From: Phoronis australis
Taxonomy: Eukaryota; Animalia; Phoronida
NCBI GenBank assembly: GCA_002633005.1
Contig: NMRA01000418.1
Location: 1 to 38,141, forward strand
Direction: 5' to 3'
Length of the DNA stretch: 38,141 nt
Shown here piece by piece: positions 2-31,782 of this stretch (within the stretch, counting starts at the first letter, position 1; each line of letters starts with the position of its first letter). Under the pieces are notes generated by a model. It had not been told where the DNA came from and searched no databases. It saw nothing but the letters and a program-made list of their open reading frames with translations. A program made the translations under genes and the position numbers.

Positions 2-3000
2 CGTGTCTAGACCACTGGCCATCTCGAGGTGAACAGCCCGACATGTTAGACACGTAAATAAACACAAGTATCGCTTGTCCCGACGCTTTCCGCGACCCTG
101 GACAGTCATGAATGGCCCTGCAAAATCGACAGCTGTCCTGGCAAAGGCGCGTAACGGTTGTTTGACTCGAATAGCGGGTAATGGTCCCATCAGCTGTCTT
201 CCTGGAACAGCTTTCGATCTCTTACATCGGTTACAATTTGACTCCCAGCGCTTTATTTCTTCTCGACCGGACAATATCCAATATATTTGCGATGATAACG
301 CAAGGGTGTGGTTTGTTCCTGCCACGTGTTTACCTAGCTCGTGATGGTGTTTAATGATGAGCTGCGTCACCCAGTTACGTTTTGGGAGAATCACTGGAAA
401 TTTGGTGTCGTATGATAGGTAGTCCGCGTTTTCTAACCGACCACCACTACGGAGAATACCATCGTCGTCCAATATAGGTCTCAAATGAACGATTACACTA
501 TTTGCAGATACGTTCAAATTCTTCGTCAAATCCCGATTTTCTTTCGCGAACTCCTTGCCCTGCGCGGCACGAATTATGTGCTTCTCAGAATCCGATAATT
601 CATCTGCGGTTAATTCGTCGCTTTTGCGATTTTCCTTCGTAACGCGACAATTTTCTACGAAGCGAATCACCCATGCTTGTACCCGAATAAGTATTCTCCA
701 ATCAGAGAATCGATCAGGGAGTAGTCTCCAATCATCCGGCATTTTACTGTAATCAATTGATAAATATGTGTTACCCTTGAAGTTTTTCTTAACTTCTCCG
801 TAATCAATCTCTCCACTTTTCTCGAATTTCTGGTTTGGCCAACACGATTCATCTTGTGACAGAAAACATGTTGCATGCCACCATGTCTCACAGTCAGCTA
901 GCTCCTGGGCTGTTTTACCTCCAGTAATATAATCAGCAGGATTGTCACGAGTCGGAACATACCACCATTGACTGGGTGACGTATGCTCTTGAATAATGCC
1001 GACACGATTCGCGACGAACGGTTTTAGGATTTTATTTTGGCTGCGAATCCACCACAACACATTCATACTATCCGACCAGAATGTGCAATTGGTGATGTCA
1101 ATCTCTGGGGCTCTCGTAACCGATAAACAAAACTTCAGTCCGAGAACTGCAGCCATTAATTCCATTCTGGGGATGCTGACAGCAGTCAACGGCGTAACAC
1201 GATTTTTCGAGCCAACGATAACACAAGATACGCTTTTATCTTCATGTTGGCAGCGTTGGTAAATCACGGTACCATAAGCGTCTTGAGAGGCATCCACAAA
1301 CACGTGTAGACTAATAGATTCCATGACACCACCGCGACCCAGGCACCGTGGAACTGCGACATTAGCCAACATTTCAAACTCTTCGAACCACACAGTATTA
1401 CGCATTTTATTCTCTAATGATTTATCCAATGGTTCGTCCCATCCAACACCGACAGTCCACAACTCCTGCATCAGCATTTTTGCTCGCACTACAAACGGCC
1501 CTATGAATCCCAACGGATCAAAGAGTGTCGCGATTTTACTCAAAAAATTTCTCTTCGTATATGTGAATCCGTCGCAAGGCTGTTCCGCATGGAACGTGAA
1601 TACATCTTCCTCGGTTTTCCACATAACTCCTAATGTTTTAATTGACGGTAACACTTCATCTTTCAAATCTATCTCGGTCGCTCTCAATTCCGGTGAAATC
1701 TCGGACAACAATTCCTTTGAATTCGATAACCACTTTCTGGCCTGCATTCCTGCTTTCGACCACAATTTCGATAACTCTCGGTATAACTCAATCTCGTCTA
1801 GTACGTTCGGAACGGAATCCCTGTTGTCATCCATGTACGCTGATTTTAAGACAGTTTCGGATGCCCTTGGAAATTCCTCACTGTGTATCCTGGCGTTTTC
1901 CTGTGACACAAACTGTGCCAAAAATGGCGAAGAATTTACGCCAAAAACGACACGATTGAACTCGAACACGTCCGGTGTGGTATCGCTCTTTATATTTCGC
2001 CACAAGAAACGATGATATTGTTTATCCTCATTGAGCAGCTGGACTTGTAAATACATCTCGGATATGTCACATACCAACGCGATAGGATGTTTACGAAACC
2101 ATAAAAGTACATCAGTCAGCTCTCGCTGCAATTTTGGCCCCTGGTATATTGCATTATTCAAGCTTACGCCATCCTTTTTTGCAGATGCATCAAACACAAT
2201 AGGGACTTTAGTGGTCGCACGATTTTCTTTCACAACAGGAAAGTGCGGTAGATACCATCCTGTGAGTTCGGCACTCATTTTACTTTCAGCAAGTTTACGA
2301 ATATATCCCTTCGCTTCATATTTCTCAATAGTCTCATTGTAGACTCTAGCGACTTCTGGCGATTTAGCCAGCTTCTTTTCTGTAGCCTTTAAACGATCCA
2401 GTGCCATCACGTAAGCATTGGGCAAGCTCGATGGCGATTCTTTCCACGGAATTCCGATTTCATAACCGTTGTCCAGTTTCTTTAAATTTTTTTCCGCGGC
2501 GTTGTACGCGGTTCGATCATCGATACTCATCGGTAATTCATCAGTGTTTGGGTTTTCGATTTCCCAAGAACGTTGTACAGTACGATCGAGAATGTTCTCT
2601 GTAAAGAACGTGTGGTGAGCACTCAACGCTTTGTTCATTCCCCCAATGCATGTCCATCCTAACGGCGTAAGTCTGGCGATGGGCTCTCGGTTTCTTCCCC
2701 GCACATCCTGCATTGAGTAATGCAAGTCGCTGTTATCCAAACCGATCAAAATGTCAATTCGATGTCTTCCTTCAAGATCGGGAAATTCTATCCCGCGCAG
2801 ATGTGACCACCTTTTCTGTTCCGTTCTCCAGTCTATAGCTTTCAAATTTCCGGTTACGCGATTGACAGTCATAGCTTCGATTTCCTTTTTCGTGTGTCCA
2901 CCGATGTTTTCCAATTCGAATTTCACTGGCATCGTTTTGAATGATTCCTAACGACCATTAATTACGTTGACTACTATTTCTTCGGATTTTCCGCACACTA

Positions 3001-4621
3001 ACAGTCCCAATTCCGCGGCGACATCGGCGTTAAGGTAAGTGCGTGTACTAGCATCATCCAACAAGGCGTTTACACGAATACGTTTTGATCCATTTTTAAG
3101 TACCACTGGAACTGTTCTCATTGCTACGAAATCGGATTTATTCGAATGCAGGGTAGTGGTCGTGTGGGTCGCATGTGTAATCGCCCCCTCCGTGGCTGGA
3201 AGGCTAGAGGGACTGTTAGTAGTAGCGCCATCTGTGGCATTCTCACGCGTTTTCGGTTGGCGATCGTTGTTATTACGGTGTAATAACCTATTATGGGTTT
3301 CTTTACTTCCGTCGATATTGTATACACGCGATCTGCGACAATCCTGACCACGGTGATTGTACCCCAAGCAACGGAAACAAAGACGGAGTTGTTTAGCTTT
3401 CGACCATCGATCACTCACGGACATTGATTTAAATACCTCGCAATTCCAGGGGCCGTGCCCAGGCTGACCACAGGCTAAACATTCCGTCACGTCTGAGTTA
3501 TGTGTTACCATAGTACGATGTGGCGTAGAACGTGGGTGGGTAAGGGGCGTTGCCGACATTCCATGGACAGTTTCGAGCGAAATTGTGTGAAACTCGGCCT
3601 CCAGAATAATAAACTCACGCAATGTTTCAACCGATTCTTCCCTCTTTTTCTCGAACATCCAGCGTTGGAAATTAGTAATCATGGTCTCGCTCATTTTTCT
3701 CAATAGCTTATGATAAAGAGACCCGTTTTCTAGTTCTGAGACCATCTCTTCTTCTTTCAAATTGACTACCACTACATCCAACAAATCGGCGTAGTCTTGT
3801 ATGTCTTTGGCAGATTTTATAGGGCGAAATTCGTCAATTGCTTCAAGTTGGCTGGCTATCTTTCTGCGTTTGCCTCCATATTTTCTATCAAGGCGTTCTT
3901 TCGCTACTTTATAGGCCGTCGCATTATGACCCAGGCTTTCGATTAGTTTAAGGGGTTCTCCTGACAAATATTGACGAAGTTGGAGCAATTTATACTCTTC
4001 TGTTGCATTGGTTGTGTCAACACATGCGTAGAAAGCGGCTTTCCAGTTTTCATAATTTTTAGTTTGTCCAGAAAATACCGGGATTGAAACCCGTTTCAAC
4101 AATTTCCACATGTCACTGGCAGTAGTTGCAGGTGGACTTACTTCACTGTGTTCACTCTCAGTTGTAGTATTTGCAGTGGCGGATCTACGTTTTCAGTAAG
4201 GGGNCGAGGGGGGGTTTAAACCCCCTGAAGCCCCCCCGTAGATCCGCCTCTGAGTATTTGGGATCATAGTGTTTAGTGCACTGACAGGTGATTTATTAAC
4301 AATCTTACCGTCTATGTAAGCTTGAACCTGCTTGCTTGCCTCAGCTCCTTCGTTTTCTAGTTGTTCTATTTCCGATTGAGTTTTCTCATACAGCGATTTG
4401 TCCGTTTCGATATAAAGTCCTGCTAATTCACTGCACACTTGTTGCGCTTCGAAATTCAGTTGTTCTACTAACTCGCACAACTGATTTATGTCGTCGACTT
4501 CACTCTCCTCCAATATCAAGTTTGACAGCTGTCTCCTTTTTTTGGTGAAAGCCGCCTTGGCCTTCGACTTATTTAACTTCAGCGCATTTATCTGTTGTGT
4601 TTTTTCCGTTTTTGCACTCAC
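2..4621 (-). pseudogene. BEL/Pao gag-pol polyprotein with two lesions: MITE insertion at 4174-4252 and in-frame TAG at 2948-2950
   Basis: ORFs 4193..4621 and 2948..4111 are in the same frame. The frame continues past the TAG (ESFKTMPVKF...IDILIGLD) and is the same frame as the integrase motif at the window edge. The pol part is probably missing from the ORF track because it has no stop inside the window; I did not check every codon. Confidence 0.88.
4174..4252. mobile_element. hAT-like MITE inserted in gag
   Basis: TIRs CAGTGGCGGATCT / AGATCCGCCTCTG and a perfect 8-bp TSD AGTATTTG (4166-4173 and 4253-4260). It contains one n, so the true length may be greater. Confidence 0.9.
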
Positions 4622-4647
4622 TGCTCTCCATCCTGATTACTCCAAAC

Positions 4648-7965: not shown

Positions 7966-9900
7966 GTCAGAATAATAGAGAGTGATTCCAATAACAGAGG
8001 ATCATGGATAAATAATTGTTTGTCGTGTAATAAAATTGTACTTGTGTTGTTTTTTGTACTGAACAGGTTAAAAAAATCATCGGGACCAGATGTTTGCAGG
8101 CTCTTTGGAGATGGTGTACGAAACCGTTGACTCCAAAGTCAAGGTCCCTCTCCAACTGGTTGACTTAAACCTATCACGTAACTACCTGTGACGTCATTTT
8201 CACTTCTCTTCAGTTTGCGGATTGTGTCACTTTTGGTTGAAACCATCACAGGTGACTTTTGATTTTTAAGTTTGGGACTTTGACTGGGGTCCCTCCCAAA
8301 CACGGCGCCTGAACAACTCATTATACCAGTTGCTTGTTTTTATTTAAAAAGCATGTGTGTTTCAAAATACACTGAAAATTCTTTGTAAAATGATATGAAA
8401 AATCAGATAGTGTCGCTTTTTCATTAACAGTGAATTAGAATCCTGAAAACAAATATTTCTACTTTCATAGCATAAACTTCATTTCAACCATTTATTCATC
8501 AAATATTACTATATTACAACAGAAAGTCTTCGTTATCGAAGGTGCGATATGAACGCTTGTTAATGATACGTGGTGGAAACCTAGGGTGACAAGTCTTATA
8601 CGCTGTGAATAAAGATTATGATCGCTAATCCCAATGGGTATACTATCAAACTTAAAAATTTTGCAACGTTTGATACAAGAATAAGATCAAGGCATGTCGA
8701 AGTTTTGACGGAAACCCTTGTGGGCACGTTAATAATATTCTGCATACCCAACTCTCGTTCCCATGCCTTAATCTTACCCACTGTCCTCTTACACAATGCA
8801 TCACAATTAAAATCACCAGTAACAATAAAATCTTTGCTGGTGTGAGCTTGATTATGAACAATATTTTTTAAATGATCAGTCAATTTTTCTGTGTATTCTG
8901 CGTTCGCAGAGGGTGGTCTGTAGACTGATCCAATAATCAAATTCTTCGATTTAGGAATACCAATCTCAACCCAGAGCGACTCCACCTGTTCGTCATGGTG
9001 CTGCAGCTGACGGCTAGTTAGTTCTTCTTTCGTGTAGATGGCAACACCACCACCTTTCCTGTTACGGTCGTTCCTATTCAATTCAAAGCCGTCGATGGCG
9101 ATCTCAGAATCATCGATGATAGAAGAGAGCCGTGTTTCATTCAAGCAAAGAATATCGATGAGTTTTTGACTCATAATAAAACGCAGATAATCAATTCGAT
9201 CAGTTAGCGACACTATATTAAGGTGTCCAATACGGAGACCTTTGGTGTATTTTAAATCAGATAGAATATCGGGACCATGGTCACTCGGGATACTGCCAGA
9301 GATTGACGGGGATGATTCATTTATGTTCTCGGTTGTGAACAACGAGTCACTAAAAATTAAAAAATCGGAGAAACCATTGAGAGCCGGGACGTGGTCTGGT
9401 TTGAGCCACGTTTCCGTGGTTGCAGCTATGTCATCTTTCTGTTCAGGACAGTAAAGAACCTCACTGTTAATGGTAGCAGATTCAGTGACTAGGGGGAGTC
9501 CCACATTAAAAGCCTCATACCAGTCAATTACATTGTCATGGTGCTTCTCTGGTTGTAAACATGGATAGACATAATGCAGGAAACAATGCAGTTGTTCCAA
9601 ATACATAGCAGTAGCAATGCTGTGGATTATCACCTGTTGAGTTCCGTTCAGCTGAATGCTGGACCTTGACTAGCAATCAAGAATATCCTTGGGAAGGGTA
9701 CACAGCAGGTTATCGGTATTGCAGCAAAAATTTTCATCGATACTCAAAGAGTTCAGCGTCAAAATACAGTAGAACCACAAAACACAGTTCTGTGGCAGTC
9801 CACTCATCAGATCCTTCGACATTAAAGCTTTCGATGGAACCCAAATATACATCAATCAGAACGGTTATGACTCTGCAATTCTCTTAAGATACGGAGCAAT
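7966..9900 (-). mobile_element. CR1/L2-group LINE fragment with an APE endonuclease (ORF 8596..9633), RT missing
   Basis: GLRIGHLNIVSL, DILCLNETRL, DRNRKGGGVAIY, IGSVYRPP, GDFN, PTRV..TCLDLI and a frameshifted SDH motif. Boundaries are approximate. Confidence 0.88.
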
Positions 9901-11429: not shown

Positions 11430-13130
11430 AGCTTGTGGCTTTCATTTCAGTGGGTTCTAGTTTCAATGGCCTATAGAAGCGCTTGTAAAAAAGGTCCAGT
11501 TTCAACACGTGGCTTTCTTTCATGTAACCTCATTCAGCCTCAATAACATCCACAATTAGACCGTTGAAGGTAAACACAGCAGCATATCACTTGAATCGTT
11601 TTGAGCCCAAAATNNNNNNNNNNNNNNNNNNNNNNNNNNNNNNNNNNNNNNNNNNNNNNNNNNNNNNNNNNNNNNNNNNNNNNNNNNNNNNNNNNNNNNN
11701 NNNNNNNNNNNNNNNNNNNNNNNNNNNNNNNNNNNNNNNNNNNNNNNNNNNNNNNNNNNNNNNNNNNNNNNNNNNNNNNNNNNNNNNNNNNNNNNNNNNN
11801 NNNNNNNNNNNNNNNNNNNNNNNNNNNNNNNNNNNNNNNNNNNNNNNNNNNNNNNNNNNNNNNNNNNNNNNNNNNNNNNNNNNNNNNNNNNNNNNNNNNN
11901 NNNNNNNNNNNNNNNNNNNNNNNNNNNNNNNNNNNNNNNNNNNNNNNNNNNNNNNNNNNNNNNNNNNNNNNNNNNNNNNNNNNNNNNNNNNNNNNNNNNN
12001 NNNNNNNNNNNNNNNNNNNNNNNNNNNNNNNNNNNNNNNNNNNNNNNNNNNNNNNNNNNNNNNNNNNNNNNNNNNNNNNNNNNNNNNNNNNNNNNNNNNN
12101 NNNNNNNNNNNNNNNNNNNNNNNNNNNNNNNNNNNNNNNNNNNNNNNNNNNNNNNNNNNNNNNNNNNNNNNNNNNNNNNNNNNNNNNNNNNNNNNNNNNN
12201 NNNNNNNNNNNNNNNNNNNNNNNNNNNNNNNNNNNNNNNNNNNNNNNNNNNNNNNNNNNNNNNNNNNNNNNNNNNGTGAAGGTTAAGAATTACCTCACCA
12301 TGCTCTTTTCCCCAAACATGTATTACCTGTTATTTCCACACATTTAGTTGTACCAAATATTACAACCCCCCATGCCAATCCCCCCTCGGGACCTGAATAA
12401 GTAATTTAACAAAATGACTTTAAAAATAGGTGTTCCTTTTCAAAGGCTTTGTCCGTTGTCTCCAATATTGAAAGTAGGCTTTGACAACAGATCTGCACTG
12501 GATGATGGGAAGATCTTGTTGGTTAGCTGCAGTCAAATGCTAAAAACCAATTTTCGTCCATTCAGGGACGGTGCAGAAGCGATGCATATCTCCTCTGCAC
12601 GGTACAAGCCTTCAAACCTAAAAACCAAAGGTTACGTGAAAACTGACGTGATAGATTTCCATTTCAACGTGAAATAGATTTCCAGAAGACATATGATAGG
12701 GAGTAAACAAATAGTCTAATGCAATGGATAATTATCACTCACGCACCCTTTGCCATTGGGATTGGATTGTAATCGTAACTCATTAACCTGTATCGAGTTG
12801 ACAGCATAACCATTCAGCATTGATTGATGTAACTGTCACTGATAAACTTTTAGAAATCATTCCAAACAATAATACTGCTTTGATGTAGGAAAAGATCCCG
12901 ATTGCTACGTCAAGTATCGTATCACATATCACAACATACAAAGATTAACCAGATTCTGGCTGGCGACTGACTGCCGCGAAGTCGACATCGGCGAGTGCCT
13001 CAGTTAATAGGCATCGGTAGAATAATCACAAATCTTACCTTTGTATGAGGTCGTGCTTACTTTCTCTCATAGAAGCACCCTTTTTACGCAATCTCAGATT
13101 CAGTTGGCACGACTGCAAGCCATTTCACCA
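11430..13130 (-). pseudogene. SAP-domain / YqaJ (lambda-exonuclease-like) gene remnant of the ISL2EU element
   Basis: Exon 13130-13039 reads QLNLRLRKKGASMRESKHDLIQR|gtaag (SAP-like), with an acceptor at 12619-12618. The C-terminus at 11430-11613 reads VFTFNGLIVDVIEAE*GYMKESHVLKLDLFYKRF (YqaJ-like). The middle falls in the N-gap. Confidence 0.6.
11614..12275. other. Assembly gap
   Basis: Run of n. Confidence 1.
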
Positions 13131-18830: not shown

Positions 18831-20739
18831 TCCATCTGAATGTAGAACAAGAGCTGATTTGCAGGACCAATGAGTTGGGCCGTGAGCTCGGCACATCCGA
18901 AAATCCCTGCAAACGTCAACCTGGGTTTTCTCATCGGCAACATTTTCCGTTTTCAAATTCACATGAATGCAGTCAGTTAACTTAATAACGATCCTTCAGA
19001 GTATATAGGAGATACAGCAATGGCGCAAAAAATGACACTAGGTGGCGCCACAGTAGTCGATACAGCGATGGGTGCAACAACAAAACTGTCACTAGGAGGC
19101 GTCGTCGAAAAATCATCGTTCGTCTTCTGTTAGAACAAAGACGACGTGTTTATATCTCCAGAAATGAGCGTTTGCGTATTTTCCGTTATAACTTAGGTAA
19201 ATCATGGGCAGTGAAACACTGAAAAAATTGGGGGCTATACCCCCAGCTCCCTATGGTTCGTGCCCATGTCAATGTAAGGTTGAAAATGACTTTGACATGT
19301 TATTTGTTTGTACATTATACACTGACACTATTAGGAAAAGGTTTATACCAGAGTATTTGTGTTATAATCCGTGTGAATGAAACTTCATCAATCTTATGTC
19401 TTCACATCTTTCTACCATATGTATACATCGTTGACTCGGTGAATGAAAGGAGTGAGGGTACATAAGAAGCTGCACTGCTGCATGGCGGGTTGAGTGGCAG
19501 ACATTTAACCTTTTACCACAGAGAAGAAGTAAACAAATTTCCAAGCGGTTGCACGGTTCCAATGTGGCTCGGTCAAATCCTTTTCTCGCTTTAATTGGTA
19601 TATATTCTGTATTTTTAAAATACTAAACTTAAAAGTTTCCCTTGAATGAAGATGAGGCACTTTACAAGATATATGTGAAATATTGTAAAAATTGACCACT
19701 TTTTGTAAATAATGCCTACAATAAGTTGCTGAAAAAAGAGGTGTTTAGTGAGAGGTGTGTTTTAGCTCTGGCCTGCCTTTTTCGAAGAGTCAATAGAGTT
19801 TTGTCTTTTGATTTTGGCTAAAACCACTTTACGGATGACTAGCCTGTATCACGAAAACAGAATTTTTAATGTCGGCCAAATATGCATACATTCCAAAACG
19901 TTTCAAGAACTGAACGGCAAAAGGTAAAAACTCAACTCTCGGCTTTTCATGCTTACATTTCTGACTTTTGAAATACGAAAGTCAAAAGTCTTTTCAAGAA
20001 ATAAGTCCATGAACTACTACGGAAACTGTTGTTTCCTTGGTACAACTTTCAACTGAGGTAGCGTGACCGTGACCTACATAGCGCTGATGTAGAGTTGTAA
20101 CACGCCACATTATTTCCTCAAAACCAGTGTGCAAGGGTTATTTCCTGAGCACACATATTATATGCTATGCATACATATGTAGGCTAGCGAATATTTGTGC
20201 GATCTGAAATTTACAGTCAAGAGTGGCAAAGGGTAAGTACAGGAGTATCAAAAAATTGCCAGGTAGTCACCCTATTGTGGCCTTTGAGCCTAAGCCCTAA
20301 ATACGCACTTAGTAGGTTAGCCAAACCAGGAAAGTATTACCAGGTGTCTCTAAGCTAGGATTTGTGTTATTTTTCCGGAAGCAATTGCATTGTAGAAAGG
20401 GCACTCCTTTGTGCACAGCATGTGATCAATCTCTTCGTTTTACGACCTAGCGATAAAGTAATTATGCTTCGGAAATGTTGACTTCACGGCAAGATATATC
20501 TGTAAAATTTCTCTGACAATTTAGTGGGCGTACGAGAGTTTTTTGTGTGCCGTTAACCTGGACATGTGAGTGAATTTTTATGCTAGAATAGTGTCGGGTC
20601 ATCCACTAAACCGCAATATAGGGGCAGGGGCCTAACACGACTGAGCACTGCCTTGGAGTCACATTGTTCCACTATGTTTAATCTACCTAAAGCCTTGTTA
20701 AGGCGCTGATGTGCCAGGTTGCATCATTTCTAAAACGTA

Positions 20740-21050
20740 TTGATCCTTACTCCGACCTTTAGCCAATTGACATTTTCAAGACGTTTCGGTCGATCACTTC
20801 TCCGGACATATTCAGTGTTAAAGCGTTCTTGGAAAAATGAGCACGGATGTAAGATACACTCTTCAGTGGACAATGACGATCACCTTCAATCTTTTTCGTG
20901 GCACAAGGTGGGATTGTATCAAGGACATTTAGATTGTCAGTCCAGTACTCCTACCACTAAACAATCGAGTCATGCATTTACATTTGTTACATCTTCCTTA
21001 GGCTTGAGTGGTACAACCACGTGTTACTTCGTTGCCTGTTGGACTGACTG
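20740..21050 (-). mobile_element. Possible Penelope-like element 3' remnant with a degenerate minimal hammerhead (20780-20815)
   Basis: Minus strand CTGAATA-TGTCCG-GAGAAGTGAT-CGACC-GAAACGTC, preceded by a weak GIY-YIG C-terminus-like translation (DNLNVLD...RKIEG). Confidence 0.45.
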
Positions 21051-21099
21051 AAAACGTTGCCGTGTAACTTCATTCGACAGATCTGGCTTTAGTTGAAAT

Positions 21100-22322
21100 T
21101 ATGGATAGAACTGTCAAGGGCCGTTCTAATTGATCTTTCCAAAGCTTTTGTCTCTTTAAATCATTCAATTTTACTCGACACACTTCTAATGGTTGCCGCC
21201 CTTTGTCTTTAATATTTTGTGAAACTGTATCTCTAATCGGGCTAAGTGTGTTCAGATTAATAACATAAAATCTAACACGGTTTCAATTTTGCGGAGTGTC
21301 CCACAAGGGTCTATATTGGGTCCGCTATTATTCATCATTTATATGAATGATTTTGTGAAGTGCACGAGTTTCTTTTACTGCATACTTTATACTTATGATA
21401 CTACTATCATTAATGGTAGGACGTTGTCTGTAAATGAGTCACATATTTTGTGGGAGCTAGAGAAACTTCAGTGTTGGTTAGTTCATTCAATTTACTTGGT
21501 GTTACCATCAACGAAAACCTGTTAGAGACTCCACATATAAACAACGTGTTGAAAAAGATAAGCAGATTCTGTGGTGTTCTTAATAACATTAAACATTTCT
21601 TGCCCCTTGAAACTTTGAAAACTGTATATAATGCTCTTGTCCTTCCTCATTTTAATGGTGACATTCTGCTATGGGGGTGTGAGCATCATAGAATATTCAA
21701 ATTACAGAAAAAGGTTATTGGCACTATTACCTCTAGTTATTTTAATGCCCATACAGATCCTTTATTTAAGACTACACAGTTACTCAAAATTAAGGACTTG
21801 TATGTTGTTACTATTATTATTTTTTTTTCTACAAATATGTTCATAATTACTTACCTTCGTTTTTAACTAGTTCAATTCAAAAATCCGTGGGTCTGTTCAT
21901 CTTCTACAAACTCATTGTTATACTAAATCATTTGCTGAATATTAAGTTCGCACTTCCCTACCTCATATCATTAATAACCGTCCTGAAAGTGTTTCCCAAA
22001 ATTTTTTTACCCATTCGTCATCCTCTATTATAAATTATTTTAAGAACGTTTGTTTTGAAAGCTATGAACTTGAGTGCACTATTTTCAAACGCTCCTAGTC
22101 TTTTTACAAGTAGTTTTGAATTACATTATAACCTTTTTTGTAATTGTGATAATTTGTAACACTGTATTTTTATTCTCTGCTGGCTCCGTGGTCAGTGGAC
22201 CCTTCGGGTCCTTCACGGAGTCTCCATAAGCGTAAATTTGTATGAATTTTATTTTTGTTTTAACGTGAATAAAGTGTACTACTGCTACTACTGCTACTGC
22301 TGCTGCTGCTGCTGCTGCTGTT
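21100..22322 (+). mobile_element. L2/CR1-group LINE, 5'-truncated, RT through 3' tail
   Basis: LIDLSKAF, VPQGSILGPLLFIIYMND, LGVTINENL, YNALVLPHF..ILLWG, AHTDPLFK; 3' UTR hairpin at 22184-22220, AATAAA, then a (CTA/CTG)n tail at 22277-22322. Confidence 0.9.
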
Positions 22323-22989
22323 GCGCATGGCCTCATTGATTTGTCTCTTGGTCAAACTTGTTCCGTTGTCAAGTATCCCGGGTGTTATGCCACTGTATGC
22401 TCTGTTTTTGACCACATGTGTTCTATTACTCCCGATTAGCTGTTGCTTTCTCTTGTGTTCCGAAATCCTGGTTTCATTTGATGTTCATGTTTTGCCTATG
22501 TAGGATCCACAACATTCACATGAGATTTGGTAGAAGAGGTGTATCTTTTTTCCCCACGTCTGTTTTTGGTTTGACTTTGTTCTGCAGCCGTTCCATGGTG
22601 TCTGAGCCACTACACGTTTCTTATTTTTTATTCCTTGCATATGCGTCCTAGAACTTCAGAAATTTTAGGTATGTACGAGAGCCACACAGTTTGTGTTGTG
22701 TTTTTTCTGATTCTCCTTTCTTTGTGATGTTATGATGATTCTTTGAATTCTTCTGCGCCGCTACCATTCTTGTCGAATGTTTGCACCAGGTTGTCTGTCT
22801 CGGCTTGGAGTGTTCTTGGACTACATACTTCCTTTGATCGTCAGACATTTGATACTACCTCTCTTAACTCGTGGTGTGATTGGAGTTGGAGTCAAAGCAC
22901 CGTTTACTACTAGACTTCTTGTTAAAGAATGATGTTATTAATTACTCTCCATGTCTAGCAATGATCACATAATGCTCTTGGCTTCATCT

Positions 22990-24330
22990 TGTTTCATCCC
23001 AAAATTAGCGACGGTGAAGGCAATAAAGGACTTTCGATTGATTTCTTTTCTCTGCTTAGAGAGCACGATTTTTTTGCCATAGTGTCGCGTTGCATGGCAG
23101 CATATGCGTTGGGAAATGGGTTCACCAACCCACAGGTGCAGAAAGGAGGAATACCAGGATATTCCGGCTGTACAGATCACACAAGCATGCTTTCGGAACT
23201 CACTAGAGAATACAAGCAGCAGGCTAAAGACTTAACGATCATATGGATATACCTGGAACAGTGTGCGTGAGTCGACAAGGAATAGGCTTCGCACCAACTA
23301 AGAGGTGGAAGACAACAAAAGGGAAGGAAAGAAGAGATATGGTGTTTCAGCAGATATGCATTGCTGAGGAAGAGAAAAGAGATGTTACAGCTGTTTGAGA
23401 AAGAAGATCACTCCAAATGATCTGTTGTCATCACAAATTCAAGGACTCAGCTTTGTGCTTAGAGCAGGGTACGATCAACATCCCACGCCCAGGAACTTGA
23501 GTCTGTAGGTAAAGCTGAAGACGGCAGATGTGATAGGTTCGGGGAACCAGGTACTTTGCAGCACATACTATCAGCGTGCAAAGCAGCACTAGCAGAGGGG
23601 ATGTATACCAGGCGGCATATCAAGTGCTGAAGGCCCTGTCATATCCTGGACATTGATAGATCAGAGAAAAAGAGCATCAGTGGAAGAAGAAATCATCACC
23701 AGGGTTTATTCCACAAGTCGAGCGACTGGAAGATGACGGTAGACCTGGGAAGTCGACCGGTTTTCCCTACATACATAGCAGTGACAACAATGACGCCTGA
23801 TATAGTGTTATGGTCGGACAGCCTAAAAGGATTGGCCATAGTAGAGCTAACAGTGCCAAGGGAGACAAGGGCCGAGGAAGCTAACGAGAGGAAGACAGTG
23901 AAGTATCAAGGTCTGATTCATGACTGCGCAGGCAATGGGTGGATGTATCACAACATCCCGGTGGAGGTTGGTTGTGGAGGATTTACCACCAAGAGCTTAT
24001 GGAGAATGGCAAAGATTTTGGGGCTTACTAAGACATCACGGAAAGAGCTGTTTAAGACCTGTTCAACAGCAGCGGAAGCAGCTTCGGCATGCATCTGGCT
24101 GCAGAGAAGTAACCTCTGGCAACATGACCGTCGCAAGACCTGAGGCACGAATCTACCTCAGGTGGCCTGGGTTTTGGAGGTCGTACTGGATCAAGGCCGA
24201 AACGACCCATGAGGATTCCTAACCAGCTGAAGACGAGCGACGGTCAGTAGCAACGACACCAATGCTTACAAGCATTTAGTAAATCATTGTCACATCGTGG
24301 TTTCCGAGACAATTTCAACAAACGGCTATG
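22990..24330 (+). mobile_element. HERO-type (R2-group) non-LTR retrotransposon with restriction-like endonuclease; most of the RT deleted
   Basis: RT start (VQKGGIPGYSGCTDHT..DLTIIWIYL), CCHC remnant (GTLQHILSACKAALAEGMYTRRH) and RLE (PDIVLWS..IVELTVP..ERKTVKY..PVEVGCGGF), stop at 24143. Confidence 0.9.
24125..24246 (+). ncRNA. Putative rearranged (pseudoknotted) hammerhead ribozyme in the HERO 3' UTR
   Basis: GUA cleavage triplet at 24183-24185, GAAA at 24199-24202 and CUGAAGA at 24227-24233, with stem I, II and III pairings in register with the core plus two extra helices (see findings). Confidence 0.6.
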
Positions 24331-24346
24331 TGAAACAAAAATAAGA

Positions 24347-24425
24347 CATTATTATTATTATATTATTATTATATTATTATTATTATTATTAATATTATTA
24401 TTATAAGTAATAAGTAATAAGTAAT
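24347..24425. repeat. (ATT)n / AGTAATA microsatellite
   Basis: Direct reading; lies between two tail-to-tail LINEs. Confidence 0.95.
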
Positions 24426-24429
24426 TTTT

Positions 24430-25300
24430 TTGTTATGGTGACACGTGTTCAAATGAATTTAAAGAATGAATACGTTACAAAACAGGAGCACCCAGGCTTC
24501 CACAGGTCTTATAAGTCACTTTAGGCTCATGATACAAAAGAAAAAAAACAAGTGTACTCGCATTGCAAGAGGACCAAAAAGACAACACAGAGATAAGAGC
24601 GATCATACATCAATATAATTTTTCCTTACTTCAAAAATATTTTTGATGAAAAATGAAGTTTTTCTGATAACATCTTTTTGCATGATTGTAATTAATTTAC
24701 TTTCACAGCTTTCTGCACTAAATCGTAAATATTTAATCTCAACGTAACAATAAAAGGTGTTTCTGGCGTCTAAGAAAAACGGACACTCAAACAGAAGATG
24801 TACTTCAGTTTCGACCTGACAAATATGACAAAGACAGCAAATTCTATCATCAAATTCTACAGAACGAAAACTCCCAACCTCAACCAATAGCTGTAGGATT
24901 CCGGTTCTAAGTTGAGCAAGAATTGACCTACTAACTGCACGTAAGACTCAACTTCAAAAACATTCTGTATCAAAACATAGATTCTTAACCACCTATCACA
25001 AGCCAAATCACATAAATATTCTTACAGTGGGAAAGATTGACGATACGTAAGTTATGAAAACAATCCGAAATCCTTAATTCTTCAAAAACGTTCAAAACTT
25101 CAGAAGACTAATTATTAGTACAGGTGGTGTAGTCCCACCAAAATATTCGATAGTCTATCTTCCTCGAAATTAATAACATGATTGCGCATTCTCAAAAGCT
25201 TAGTTTTCCGCCTAACACTGGGGAATTCCCACCCCATGATTAGGAGCGAATTTGTGAATGTCCAAGAAAACTTGCACGGCTCTATTCTGAATGACATCAT
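24430..25300 (-). mobile_element. LINE 3' fragment with C-terminal CCHC finger (RTEX/I-group-like)
   Basis: RSILAQLRTGILQLLVEVGSF..DRICCLCHICQVETEVHLLFECPFFLDAR, followed by a short UTR and a (TAA)n tail. Confidence 0.8.
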
Positions 25301-25313
25301 AAACTAGAGCCCC

Positions 25314-25360
<47 letters not shown>
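25314..25360. repeat. (ATT)n microsatellite
   Basis: About 15 perfect units. Confidence 0.98.
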
Positions 25361-25361
<1 letters not shown>

Positions 25362-25479
25362 GTATATGTGTCAACAAATAGAAAGGAGCAAAGCACATTT
25401 AAAACAATACTTGTACGAGATATAACTGTAAGAGACTGTTACATGTATAGCATCAGATTGTGGGGGAACGAAATCAAAT

Positions 25480-26560
25480 CATGACGCAGCGTCTAGAAAT
25501 ACTGATCTAACGTTAAACCTTTTCTCAAACTGCAAGCGAATTTCGTGTAATATTACGATACAGCTTTGTTTCCAAGCACGAATTCGAAATGTCGAGGTAA
25601 GGTGCTCAAAATTTTTGTGGCAAATAATTATTTGGGCAATTCCATTTGTGACGGACGTACAACTAGAGAACATTATCTCAATTGTGAAAAAATATTCATC
25701 TTAGGAAAGTAATTAATACACCAATTGACAGCTCTCGTTGATAGCTTTAAATTAAAGCGTGTATCATTTTTCTCCTATCTTTTTATCTGACTGAGAAAAT
25801 TGCATTTAAAGGGGTGTGACGGACGTATGCAGAGAATTTGGATTTTTTAAAAAAGCTTAACTTTAATTTTCTGTGAGTTGACCTTTGACCCCAAGTAATC
25901 TATGATAAACCTTAGGCCTCATGTGACTGGACAAATTCGATAGTATAGTGATGTACTCATAATTAGCTTTTTATTACAATAATTAGCACAACACGTGAAA
26001 GTCGAGCTAAGATTTTAGGGTCAGGTGACCATCAAAATTGGGACCATCTAGGCGAAAATTAAAAGTTATAAGACAATAAAATATAAGCCCTGAAAGTAGA
26101 AAGAATGGGCATTCAGATGAGACCAGAAATTTAGTGTAGCCATAATTTGCCCATTTGTAATCGCTTGGATAACGGGTTGAGAAGTCTTATAGGGCGATAG
26201 TAGGCCATGTCCGTTTTCGAGTCTTTTTGTGTAGAGATATCATTATTCTGAGTTAACAAGGCATAGAGAATTTTCCTGATGTTATATAGTGTTGTCAGAG
26301 GGACTGTGAGTTCTTTTGTAACGGTTTTCATCATTTTATTTGGTTATTAGGTCGGTTCTGTTCTTTTTGTATTCGCCTATGTTTAGTTTTATGACCTCAG
26401 AGGATTTGGCTTGTATGAGTCAGAGGTATTCAAATGATGTACCAGGGAATTCAGAAGAGGTTTTTTGTTGGTTTAATGTGACTTTTGGATGTGAAGTACT
26501 GGAGGAAAAAGTTACTCTTCTCAAAATTGAATGACGCATGAGTGTTGAGGACCCAAGGCT
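25480..26560 (-). mobile_element. CR1-like LINE RT N-terminal remnant, interrupted at about 25560-26150 by unrelated repeat DNA
   Basis: EKSNFFLQYFTS, ELTVPLTTLYN, YYRPIRLLNPLSK, and after the interruption VRSVFLD. Confidence 0.6.
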
Positions 26561-27094
26561 TCATTTGAATTGGTGTTGCTGGTGTATCCTCGAAGTTTAT
26601 TGATTATATTCGAGTTCACACTGAGTTGCGTTCCGTTCACCTAATTACCACTCGCGCGAAAAGCTTCGCATGTAATGCACTGGGATGTTTCGCGAAGACA
26701 TGCGTTATTTTGCTTTTCAACAGAACACAACCTAGTTGCCCGTTACGTTGATGCAATAACCTCCAACAGCTCAAGATCACTCGAGCCTTCGAGAGATATC
26801 GCCATCCATGAATTACAAGCAAACCCCGTGCTCACACGAACTTTCTAACAAAGTACTTGTGTCTACGGGACTCGACCCCACTAGAAACGTTGTTGCACTA
26901 CCGCCACCCTAGTATATTTAATGTCGCTCATTCAGAGGTAAACAGTAAATGGCGCTGAACGTTGTCCATCAAACACTCTCCTAGTGATACATCTTGTTTC
27001 AATATGTCGCACCTATATAAAACCATGGCTATACCAGAACTGATTTAATTCGAATTTTATTTTTTGTTTAGGTCTGGACTCGCGAACAACAGAA

Positions 27095-27152: not shown

Positions 27153-29198
27153 GTGGGGTGAAATTTGTGTCATATTTCATGTTCAATAAAGGCTTATTTT
27201 CTTAAATAACTCTTTCGAAACAAACCGAAATGGAATATTAGATGTCTACTTTATCTGGATTGTAAACATATCTGTTAAAGATGTATATATCGGGCGTCTC
27301 AAAATGCACAAGTGCAGGATAAGATGACGATGGTGCTTCTCATTGATTACACCAGTTCTAGCGAAGCATGCGCAATAGGCCTTATGCACGCAGTCGTCAT
27401 TTTAAAAAAGAAGTTTGAAGAATGCAGTTGGGAATAAATATAACGATGCACACAAAAATATCGCGTCTTGCACTTTGACTAAGCGCGGAATGCATTGCGT
27501 TTTAAAACCAAAATAGGAGGCTTTGCGTGATATTGCGACTGCTTGAATAAGGTGTATTAAATTTTGTATTGAGCAATGACGATGAAATCAGGAAACGGAA
27601 CTACAGCCACCAGCAGTTACTTATGTTTTAAAAAACTATGTTTGAGACATTCATTTTAATAGCAAGTCGTTAAAAAGATGTTTAAGAACGTCAGAGTTAT
27701 GAAAATGCGCCAAATTGACTAACGCTTTCAGCAACGTAACATTGCTTTATGACGTTTCAGAGGTAAGACATGTTTCTGAAAGCGTTAGGCAGCACTGCAT
27801 AAATACATGATTTCTGGACTTGTTTTTGGTCCTCTTTTTAATAAAGCATTGTTTAGTCATAGTATGATTAATCTTAAATTACTCAGCATTTCTCACTCAA
27901 CACTTACATGTACATGTGTAGACTTTTATGCACTTTTTGGAAAGCTTAGTGAGGTTAAATCTGTGTTTTTCAAAATTAGTCTTTTGTCTCTCGTTGGACG
28001 GATACCATGTTTAACATAAAAAGCTTAACCCGAGCAATCAATGTCTTACACCAAACCTGTAATTCAGAGTAAAAGACAAAGGTGTTGAAAGCCAGCTTTC
28101 AGCACAGATGTAAGTCGTCTGACACTTTTCGGACATAGTTAGGTTGGATGAATCCATGTTTAAGAAGCTTCGTTTTCTTATTGTAGGTTTGCTTTTGCAG
28201 ATTTTGAAATGAATGTTCTTCAAGAGGCCATCACTATCAGAGGAGGTTTTTGACAGATAACTACAGCCAATTAAAATATTAGTTTCAATTGACACATTTT
28301 ATAAGGAAATGAAATCACTATTACAACGTACCTCTTGTGCAATCGCTGAACTAGCAAAATCTTTTGAGAATTTTGAGAAACCTCAGTTTTGAGAGTTTGT
28401 TTTGTATTTACATTTCTCAAATAACCTGGAATGTGCTACGACACGACTAGTTAATGACACCAAGCTCGTAATTTTTGGATATTATATGGGCGAATCACAA
28501 AGTAGTGCAAATTGGACATACATAGACTTTACATTTTATGGTCTGCAAAACACTAAAACGACTAAACGCGCGCCAACGAAACAATGCCGGAATTCCGAGA
28601 AGGTGACAAGGTTATGATTGACAAATCGGGTGTCGCAACTTTACGTACTCCCAGTCGGAATGACATGCAAACAACTTCTTAAACGGACACATCTTCGGCG
28701 GCAAATTCCATATCCACGTTAATTCAAATGGATACAAGCCCCGACTCAAGAAACGCGGAGAGACTGTCGAGCTGTGGTGTCTCTAGGTCAATTCAGTGCT
28801 CACGCGCTGGAAACCTTGCTGACTGCTACTTCTCGACATTTTTTTAACTTTTAATATTACAACTTCAAAGACTATTTATTAGATTCTAACTTGAATATTT
28901 GCTACGAAAGCTGCAATTTACGATTGTTAAGCTTAAAATAAAACTATTAACAAAAAGTAACTGAATTACTTTACATTGCGCAAGCGTGTTTTTACAAAAG
29001 TTGCGTCATGTGGTTGAAAGTTTTAGACACGTCGAGTTTTTCGGCAAAAATATCGTTTTTACAGTTCATGAGAGAAAACAAATCCTACAATCGTCTCAGA
29101 TTTATGAACCTGATACTCGTGTAGGATTCTCTATGTATTATACGATCAATACTGATGAACACCCCTAGATCCAAAGGTTTTGCGCTTGTTTATTGCAG

Positions 29199-29564
29199 GT
29201 GTTGTTGATGCAGCTCTTGATGTGAATGTTCCTAGTGAGATCATCGCTGTGAAGGGAGGCTTAGCTGTATTTGAAATCAGCTACACAGAGAGTGGTGGTG
29301 ATACCTTCAACAGTTTTGCATTGAATAAGGGAGCACAGAATGTGTTTACTGCACCTCTCGCTGTTCAAGGCCAGTATTTCCGCAATGGATCATTCTCAGG
29401 ACTCTATAAAACCCGTGCTTCTACTAACTACTATTTTGGCAGGACTCAGTTCACCATCACTCTAAGTGGAATTACAACAAGTGATAAGGGAGAGTACCAA
29501 ATAAAGTTTACTATAAACCGCAACGTAGCTGTCCCATCTGCTGTAACTCAACTTGTGTTGGATG
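29199..29564 (+). CDS. Exon encoding a V-type immunoglobulin domain lacking the canonical disulfide
   Basis: ttattgcAG acceptor and G|GTAAGT donor; 366 nt, phase 1-1; AVKGGLAVFEISY (B strand), YKTRA, FTITLSGITTSDKGEYQI (E-F strands, DxGxY), TQLVL (G strand). Confidence 0.88.
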
Positions 29565-31128
29565 GTAAGTACATGTAAGGCTTTGCATTAGAAATGTTGA
29601 TGTTTGCCAAGCAATGGAGCAATGTGCTTTTATTGGTTTGCTTTAGAGTTTTGGTCTTGGCCTCTTCAGTGTATTTTAGACCTGTGTACTGTATGCAAAA
29701 ATGCAGGTTCGTATCGAAATTGGGCTAGTAGTACAGGAGTACTCAAGATTGGGCATAAATTCACAAATTTTGAGCAGATTATTTACCAAGTTGTTACTCA
29801 CTTAGTGAAAACCTAATAATAGAAATGAAAGACGATTTTTAAATTAGAAATTAAAAACAAATTTCAAATCATTCACTAAAAATACGAGTCCTGAAGCCGG
29901 AATCTCCCCGACTCATTCTAAATGTAATCAATGAATCACAAGGCTTCTTCATCACCAGCCTAGGTTATGAGTAACGTTTTCTGTTATTAGCGGATTGTTT
30001 ACTTTGTTTTGGACTATATCCAACTAAATACATATAGACCGGGATCCCAGAGCTTTTTTGGACATGAAAAGGTAATCAATTTTCTTTGGTGCCACGCTGC
30101 TCTATGGATATCCTGATGCTTGGAAATGGTTGTCTGGCAGGTTCGCTATGGTGGGTGTGGTCAGGGGAGCCAAGAAAATGACACTCAAAAATTGATCTAG
30201 ATCAACTTTTGTGGTAACCACTTCAAACTGCCTTGGATACCTCCTACGTAATCCACTGCATCAAAATTGGTCAGACGGTTATAAACAAGGTGCAAAAATT
30301 GAGCTAGATCAATCCAAGAGGTAACCGCATGAAATCAGTTGCAAAATATTCACTGTGAGCCCAGGTATCACGAATGAACACTGCCAGACAAATCTAGTGG
30401 TGGGTTAGCCCCGCCAGACACGCTCAAATACCCGCAAATACCCGAGTTGAGCTAGATCAACCCACCAGGTAACCGTTTGAAACCAATTGCACGATGTTCA
30501 GCATCACTGTACATGACACAAGTGTTAGATGCCCGACGTTTTCAGTGGTGGGTTGCCTCTGCCAGACGATTATCAAAAAGGGTTAAAAATTGAGCTAGGT
30601 CAACCCAAGAGTTAACAGCTTAAATCCAGTTCCAAAATATTCACTGTAAGCCCAGGCATCACGAATAAACACTGCCAGACAAATCTAGTGGTGGGTTATC
30701 CCCGCCAGACACGCCCAAAGACCTGAGTTGAGCTAGATCAACCCAAGAGGTAGCCGCATGAAACCAGTTGCAAAATATTCGCTGTAAGCCAATGTATCAA
30801 GAATAAATACTGCCAGACAAATCTAGCGGTGGGTTAGCCCCGCCAGACAAGCCCAAATACCCGAGTTGAGCTAGATCAACCCACCAGGTAACCGTTTGAA
30901 ATCAATTGCACGATGTTCAGCATCTCTGTACATGACACAAGTGTTAGATGCCCGACATTTTCAGTTGTGGGTTGCCTCTGCCAGACGATTATCAAAAAGG
31001 GTTAAAAATTAAGCTAGATCAACCCAAGAGGTAACCGCTTAAAACCAGTTCCAAAATATTCACCGTAAGCCCAGGTATCACGAATAAACACTGCCAGACA
31101 AATCAAGTGGTGGGTTATCCCCGCCAGA

Positions 31129-31782
31129 NNNNNNNNNNNNNNNNNNNNNNNNNNNNNNNNNNNNNNNNNNNNNNNNNNNNNNNNNNNNNNNNNNNNNNNN
31201 NNNNNNNNNNNNNNNNNNNNNNNNNNNNNNNNNNNNNNNNNNNNNNNNNNNNNNNNNNNNNNNNNNNNNNNNNNNNNNNNNNNNNNNNNNNNNNNNNNNN
31301 NNNNNNNNNNNNNNNNNNNNNNNNNNNNNNNNNNNNNNNNNNNNNNNNNNNNNNNNNNNNNNNNNNNNNNNNNNNNNNNNNNNNNNNNNNNNNNNNNNNN
31401 NNNNNNNNNNNNNNNNNNNNNNNNNNNNNNNNNNNNNNNNNNNNNNNNNNNNNNNNNNNNNNNNNNNNNNNNNNNNNNNNNNNNNNNNNNNNNNNNNNNN
31501 NNNNNNNNNNNNNNNNNNNNNNNNNNNNNNNNNNNNNNNNNNNNNNNNNNNNNNNNNNNNNNNNNNNNNNNNNNNNNNNNNNNNNNNNNNNNNNNNNNNN
31601 NNNNNNNNNNNNNNNNNNNNNNNNNNNNNNNNNNNNNNNNNNNNNNNNNNNNNNNNNNNNNNNNNNNNNNNNNNNNNNNNNNNNNNNNNNNNNNNNNNNN
31701 NNNNNNNNNNNNNNNNNNNNNNNNNNNNNNNNNNNNNNNNNNNNNNNNNNNNNNNNNNNNNNNNNNNNNNNNNNNNNNNNNN
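31129..31782. other. Assembly gap
   Basis: Run of n. Confidence 1.

Follow-up and report, generated by a model that had tools for sequence, protein, structure and literature searches.

Results

A decayed R2-like element in the window

The window analysed here is the whole 38,141-nucleotide stretch of Phoronis australis contig NMRA01000418.1. Its forward strand carries a 5'-truncated, internally deleted and decayed retrotransposon copy, whose broken ORF matches amino acids 429-522 and 951-1172 of a full-length relative of 1175 amino acids, P0059.

22975..23255, forward strand: reverse-transcriptase fragment in two frames, found by tblastn, matching amino acids 429-522 of P0059
23508..24143, forward strand: broken remains of the C-terminal region with its CCHC knuckle and restriction-like endonuclease, ending at the stop codon 24141-43

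P0059 contains RVT_1 and zf-RVT domains and its best PDB matches are R2 proteins; a PD..E.K endonuclease pattern is present at the C-terminus of the ORF. One ORF bearing reverse transcriptase, CCHC knuckle and C-terminal PD..E.K endonuclease, complete in the relatives and fragmentary in the window, places the element among the RLE-type (R2-like) non-LTR retrotransposons. Those relatives that bear a name belong to fish, lancelets and bivalves, and the family is presumably HERO. The HERO description in the available text of PMC4640811 agrees with these hosts and with unrelated flanks. Protein scans of viral contigs gave no relative of the element, and 19 viral-contig matches to the core DNA pattern described below were set aside as chance, none having a stem I of at least 3 bp. 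In a prokaryote collection three loci (L100, L101 and L102) hold HERO-like DNA inside bacterial assemblies, and are probably host contamination of those assemblies.

Elsewhere in the window the following were seen:

2948-4636, reverse strand: DUF1759 ORF with zinc-knuckle and protease-like motifs, presumably a fragment of a BEL/Pao-type LTR retrotransposon
8596-9669, reverse strand: AP-endonuclease ORF
21223-21866, forward strand, and 24603-24947, reverse strand: RT-like or LINE-like fragments, with no Pfam match for the two scanned
24349-24426: degenerate (ATT)n and a short tandem repeat, beyond the end of the element
29159-29578, forward strand: immunoglobulin V-set-like exon (E 1e-4, under the Pfam cut-off)
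about 11600-12280 and 31120-31780: two assembly gaps of N

A hammerhead core with separated strands

A sequence-only reading had proposed that the 3' UTR of this element holds a hammerhead core and five helices; when the letters were re-checked, all of these were found in place. To them can be added PI as a further, sixth helix, together with the pattern of a k-turn. All of the parts lie on the forward strand:

24125..24137: 5' strand of the outer helix P0, pairing with 24234-46, with two mismatches at 24135-36
24138..24163: hairpin P1 (stem 24138-45/24156-63), its loop 24146-55 decayed in the window copy
24141-43: stop codon of the element ORF, inside hairpin P1
24164..24168: 5' strand of stem II, beginning with G10.1, detached from CUGANGA and pairing with 24194-98
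24170..24176: 5' strand of PI, the interaction helix of stems I and II, which has decayed in the window copy
24177..24178: GA step of the predicted k-turn, on the non-bulge strand
24179..24189: block S, comprising the stem III 5' strand (24179-84), H17 and the stem I 5' strand (24186-89)
24183-85: GTA triplet, with U16.1 at 24184 and H17 at A24185; the predicted cut is 3' of A24185
24190..24193: linker from the stem I strand to the stem II strand
24194..24207: block G, comprising the stem II strand (24194-98), GAAA (24199-202) and the stem III 3' strand (24202-07)
24208..24219: predicted k-turn bulge (24208-10) and GA (24211-12), then the PI 3' strand
24223..24233: stem I 3' strand (24223-26) and the CUGAAGA core (24227-33)
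24234..24246: 3' strand of P0, beginning directly after A9
24247..24272: element tail; the points at which other copies diverge from the window, 24260 and 24272, lie about 87 nt beyond the cut

The motifs CUGANGA, GAAA and NUH, with H not G, are all present, stems I, II and III adjoin them and covary, and the pairs G10.1-C11.1 and A15.1-U16.1 are formed. The pairing of P0 is real, but it is not the perfect 10 bp first described: P0 has 13 bp with two mismatches on the junction side, its start being set by relatives in which it follows directly after A9. The window copy is decayed both at PI and at the loop of P1. Two other pairings were rejected: the canonical one of the published type SGC, with a stem II strand right after CUGANGA, by the 50 parsed sequences described below, and a G-U-rich stem II at 24170-77, which was the parser's choice, in favour of 24164-68 by the spacing in relatives. 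Single-sequence folding, for which pseudoknots are beyond reach, recovered only parts of the fold. No hammerhead was found with Rfam in window positions 19000-27000 or in the 12 related loci scanned: neither gave a match to the covariance models of hammerhead types I-III.

The fold is conserved and covaries

Eighty related loci (numbered with the prefix L) were fetched by their endonuclease alone, and a descriptor was written that comprised NUH, GAAA and CUGANGA in that order, stems I and III, and an upstream partner for stem II. In the 38-kb window, on both strands, its single match is the site at 24125..24246, and 54 of 81 sequences (the window and the 80 related 3' regions) matched. It found nothing in 3240 dinucleotide shuffles, in the reverse complements or in the coding DNA that lies upstream (238,810 nt). 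Four of the 54 matches (L012, L036, L056 and L076) were left unparsed, giving 50 parsed sequences; exclusion of the mis-parsed L058 and L072 left 48 sequences, which group into 24 families when anchored columns are compared at 80% identity. From 24 representatives a covariance model was made; it matched 70 of the 80 loci at E<0.01 and, with the limit relaxed to E<=1, 72 loci, of which 23 had served to build it. The eight loci with no model match are L018, L021 and L040, which end too early, L074, with about 330 nt past the stop, and L035, L065, L067 and L070, RLE relatives at a greater distance that lack the motif and branch close to the base in a tree of weak resolution; in the three of these four that were scanned, Rfam gave no match of any family. 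L102 has the motif without P0, P1 or stem II, about 570 nt after the endonuclease match.

Column conservation was taken from 67 of 76 aligned matches, eight partial or gapped at an anchor column and one weak match within an ORF being left out. The 12 most conserved columns are those of the hammerhead core (G5, U4, A13, A14, A6, A15.1, G8, A9, U16.1, G10.1, C3 and G12), as the sequence-only reading would require, and N7 is free to vary. H17 is C in 29 rows, U in 20 and A in 18, and G in none of the 67. U at this position is a slower base in hammerheads, and its share here (alignment column 82) is above that known for natural hammerheads; slow cutting may suffice.

In a structure-blind MAFFT alignment of the 24 families, 84% of the cells of the proposed helices are paired, against 59% when shuffled and 34-44% when slid, and 35 of the 37 proposed pairs change on both sides. 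In a tree-aware G-test of our own, which ranked 6786 column pairs, proposed pairs take every one of the first 20 places; six, in stems I, II, III and P0, reach E<0.05, and no pair of P1 or PI does so. RNAalifold alone recovers the detached stem II. The percentages paired over the 48 sequences are, for stems I-III, partly so by construction because these stems are in the descriptor, and P0, P1 and PI lie outside it but had their register optimised. The fold is a real and widely conserved feature; its six helices covary, and the covariation foreseen across families is supported, with significance in the G-test for pairs of I, II, III and P0. That the arrangement arose by chance or as an artefact has a negligible probability in view of the shuffle null, the MAFFT pairing test, the G-test and the conservation of the core columns.

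A predicted four-way junction in place of the A9-G10.1 link

From 5' to 3' the strands run P0, hairpin P1, II, PI, III, H17, I, linker, II, GAAA, III, PI, I, CUGANGA, P0, with a spacing of 14-19 nt from U16.1 to G12 in the 50 parsed sequences. A hammerhead has A9 and G10.1 joined directly or through 1-2 nt; here two helices are inserted between them. There are no unpaired bases at any of the three steps A9 to P0, P0 to P1 and P1 to G10.1 in 38 of the 50 sequences, and in only four of the 50 could the base after A9 pair with position 11.1. The earlier proposal that two helices replace the A9-G10.1 link is upheld by these counts, which point to a link opened into a perfect four-way junction. In such a junction two stacks would form, P0 with P1 and stem II with the G12-A9 pair, and the two crossing strands would bring A9 and G10.1 together in place of the missing bond. 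The fold is very probably a self-cleaving hammerhead, with the cut predicted after H17 (A24185).

PI, the predicted k-turn and the loop of P1

It had been suggested that the short linker alone takes the place of the usual loop-loop contact between stems I and II. This does not hold in the relatives, which have a real helix there, PI, as in type SGC; each of its pairs is formed in 21-24 of the 24 families. Between stem III and PI the pattern of a k-turn (helix, 3-nt bulge, GA opposite GA) is present in 17 of 24 families and 35 of 48 copies, the window included, against a chance level of about 0.03. The standard k-turn consists of a helix, a 3-nt bulge, tandem G-A/A-G pairs and a second helix. 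A k-turn is therefore predicted from the pattern, and it would fold stem III back toward PI, with PI clamping stems I and II.

The loop of P1 has at least 5 nt in 14 families, and 12 of these carry in it a palindrome of 6-8 nt (the threshold being 6 nt); under the null the mean was 2.0 and the highest of 5000 values was 7. The palindromes differ by family (TGATCA, TGGCCA, TGTACA, TCATGA) and are mostly half a base off centre; among control regions 2 of 48 had a loop palindrome. A GACG tetraloop caps P1 in 5 of 24 families, and neither palindrome nor GACG is found in another 5 of 24 (L025, L029, L046, L047 and L061), besides the decayed window copy. The window loop is not palindromic, and placing there four letters from other copies (among the letters listed, which are without phase) gives an 8-nt palindrome. 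On balance we regard P1 as a putative kissing-loop hairpin that would pair two RNAs loop to loop.

Copy ends, tandem joints and reads

Across families the predicted cut lies 29-182 nt downstream of the stop codon, and in 13 of 24 families the stop codon lies within P0 or P1. Copies are without poly(A); 17 copies of three families end 85-91 nt past the cut and four copies of a fourth family 214-215 nt past it. All 21 of these copies contradict the proposal that the cut forms the 3' end of the element: their ends fall 85-91 or 214-215 nt beyond it, so that the template does not end at the cut. A small hairpin is seen just upstream of the element 3' end in many families (window 24247-24272; tails of L003, L007, L020 and L046).

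At 12 of the 55 loci with at least 450 nt past the stop, the tail is followed directly by the 5' UTR and N-terminus of a next unit, the heads being complete and abutting precisely. The joints of L053 and L079 are of one family. L028 and L054, on one contig, form a mixed-family tail-to-head tandem (74% DNA identity, 58% protein identity), and carry an identical P1 loop palindrome. Over 10 loci the downstream unit tends toward the kin of the upstream unit (Mantel rho 0.36, p 0.019). A collapse of repeats may also account for contigs of this tail-to-head kind. In the 5' UTRs of the downstream units there are arrays of short hairpins with purine-rich loops and a repeated TGAC-like motif between them (L007 2012-2135, L020 2022-2150, L030 2030-2160; also L006, L012, L028, L049, L066 and L069), possibly protein-binding or translation signals.

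One locus is broken at the predicted cut itself. Positions 1-43 of L076 are the 5' half of its own family's ribozyme, ending at H17, fused with 3-nt microhomology to the ORF interior near amino acid 564; of the 5' junctions that can be seen it is the only one at the cut, the 34 others lying elsewhere. Such a joint would be the product expected of a reverse transcriptase jumping onto the cut 3' end. In 83 loci no 3' half was found that begins by itself at the cut and has foreign DNA visible upstream of it, a weak test as the loci were chosen by the endonuclease.

DNA and RNA runs of the same species contain other copies, with 46, 27 and 6 RNA reads (18-19% of each run), none of them at least 95% alike to the window. 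The RNA reads span 24175-24199 without a pile-up of read ends and stop near 24260-24272; the first mate is mostly of the minus strand, which in most stranded libraries means sense transcription.

Discussion

Relation to known ribozymes

The order UH, GAAA, CUGANGA had been thought undescribed, and this is not so: it has been published as type SGC (Eckert et al. 2023, PMC10085705). According to the available text, type SGC (HRIMA-1 and variants) cleaves in vitro at 0.007-0.19 per minute and was found only in metatranscriptomes, and the count of six hammerhead permutations assumes three unbreakable blocks, with block C uninterrupted. The LINE fold shares with it the order of site, GAAA and CUGANGA, the short linker from stem I to stem II, a helix tying these stems together, two core pseudoknots and the same conserved bases. 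It differs in that block C is split, the stem II strand lying upstream and joined via P0 and P1, and the ends are open in P0; it differs also in having stem III and PI joined on both strands with a k-turn pattern, the loop palindrome and an animal LINE as host. The S, G, C order, the linker and the interaction helix are thus those of type SGC and the uninterrupted block C is not, and because of the latter the fold is set apart: it appears to work like a type-SGC hammerhead, yet outside that type. The terms k-turn, kissing and four-way are absent from the main text of PMC10085705 as available.

Smaller departures are known. A single extra base (A10) between A9 and G10.1 is tolerated in the CChMVd (+) hammerhead (PMC3705267, available part), where it sits in a type III fold, compared with two inserted helices here, and other small core insertions are listed in the accessible portion of PMC3088659. 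The hammerheads of Penelope-like elements and retrozymes share a retroelement host, tandem units and a circular RNA as proposed template, and differ in having type I topology and belonging to other element classes; the available text of that preprint (bioRxiv 10.64898/2026.07.22.740005) has no occurrence of HERO. The 5' HDV-like ribozyme of R2 likewise frees a unit of an RLE LINE from a longer transcript by self-cleavage, but it is of another ribozyme class, lies at the 5' end and releases its product (PMC7650587, PMC13580325, as far as their available text goes). Palindromic loops, as in HIV-1, and GACG tetraloops both link retroviral dimers (PMC516450, in part), and these dimer initiation hairpins share with P1 a 6-8-nt off-centre palindrome or a GACG tetraloop on a stem-loop; unlike them, P1, a putative dimer hairpin, sits inside a ribozyme junction of a LINE 3' UTR. 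The available parts of PMC13725137, PMC10162972, PMC7650587, PMC5678591, PMC13580325, PMC516450 and bioRxiv 10.64898/2026.07.22.740005 held no precedent. Within the literature accessible to us, which did not extend to Repbase Reports, subscription journals or preprint supplements, there was no hammerhead in HERO or RLE 3' UTRs, nor any precedent for the A9-G10.1 four-way junction, the stem I-II helix with a k-turn pattern, the palindromic or GACG hairpin, or the LINE host. Measured against that literature, the split block C, the k-turn pattern, the loop palindromes and the LINE host would be new, and the SGC strand order is already known.

What the cut may serve

The reading that we place first, and hold tentatively, is that the window carries a decayed copy of a conserved 3' UTR fold of R2-like, HERO-type LINEs that likely self-cleaves, the nick serving an end-joined (circular or nicked-circular) template. 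We give an end-joined template slightly less than an even chance. Because P0, II, PI and III, about 30 bp together, all bridge the two products, the cut would be a nick; for the same reason nothing would be released after it and re-ligation would be favoured. Cutting of a tail-to-head transcript would give a unit with the upstream 3' half first and its own 5' half last. A ribosome stopping inside P0 or P1, where the stop codon lies in 13 of 24 families, could displace the old partner and allow the two ends of the unit to pair with each other and close it. Reverse transcription, target-primed at the tail end, would then pass across the joined site. Several observations count against an end-joined template: the RNA reads of other copies cross the site with no pile-up of ends, an exchange of about 30 bp is needed for a unit to close on itself, and just one junction at the cut is seen against 34 elsewhere. 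Furthermore, a self-circle does not explain why L028 is followed by a different family.

That mixed tandem, with one palindrome in both loops, is more readily accommodated if the hammerhead is an expression switch, which is the second-ranked explanation and one that we consider doubtful. The cut would part the coding body from any tail, whether poly(A) or read-through, with the effect that translation falls or the RNA passes into the ribonucleoprotein; the uncut or re-joined linear RNA would be the template, and tail-head joints would come from end-to-end template jumps between two RNAs held by the kissing loop. The stop codon inside P0 or P1 in 13 of 24 families and the lack of poly(A) on the copies fit this explanation, and template jumping is known for R2 (PMC5678591, available text). 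It is harder to reconcile with the four helices that keep the products paired and with heads that are complete and abut the tails precisely; the kinship of downstream and upstream units fits both the switch and the end-joined template.

It is improbable, and ranked third, that the 3' UTR is a non-catalytic scaffold to which the element protein binds, as happens at the R2 3' binding motif, and that the core, derived from a hammerhead, has been retained for its shape or for binding. Reads that span the site, U at H17 in 20 of 67 rows and a break in the A9-G10.1 backbone larger than any published (by comparison with the available text of PMC10085705) would agree with a scaffold, but the conserved positions are precisely those needed for catalysis, N7 varies freely, G does not occur at 17, and the L076 junction falls at H17. 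The original suggestion that the cut forms the 3' end of the template RNA is very unlikely: the position of the site, 29-182 nt past the stop, would suit it, but the ends of the 21 copies of four families do not, and the window family diverges from its flanks at 24260/24272.

An extension of the end-joined template, which we regard as unlikely, is that a ribozyme-closed RNA circle replicates a whole animal LINE clade: a hammerhead across a four-way junction and a k-turn would cut and re-seal, and a retrovirus-like kissing hairpin would pair two RNAs for the passage of reverse transcriptase. If true, the life cycle of these LINEs would include steps resembling those of viroids and of retroviruses, and their hammerhead would have a topology beyond the six thought possible.

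For the family itself, one block of the hammerhead is broken and yet every catalytic base is kept, and because of that break descriptor and Rfam searches missed a probable ribozyme common in LINEs of the fish, lancelet and mollusc type. A non-circular permutation is no longer confined to orphan RNAs and has a place in animal genomes. In a LINE, a self-complementary loop would act as a signal for dimers. Lastly, plain linear target-primed reverse transcription does not readily account for a cut that lies 85-90 nt inside the template, which makes the template form of R2-like elements directly testable, and that form bears on their use as gene-insertion tools.
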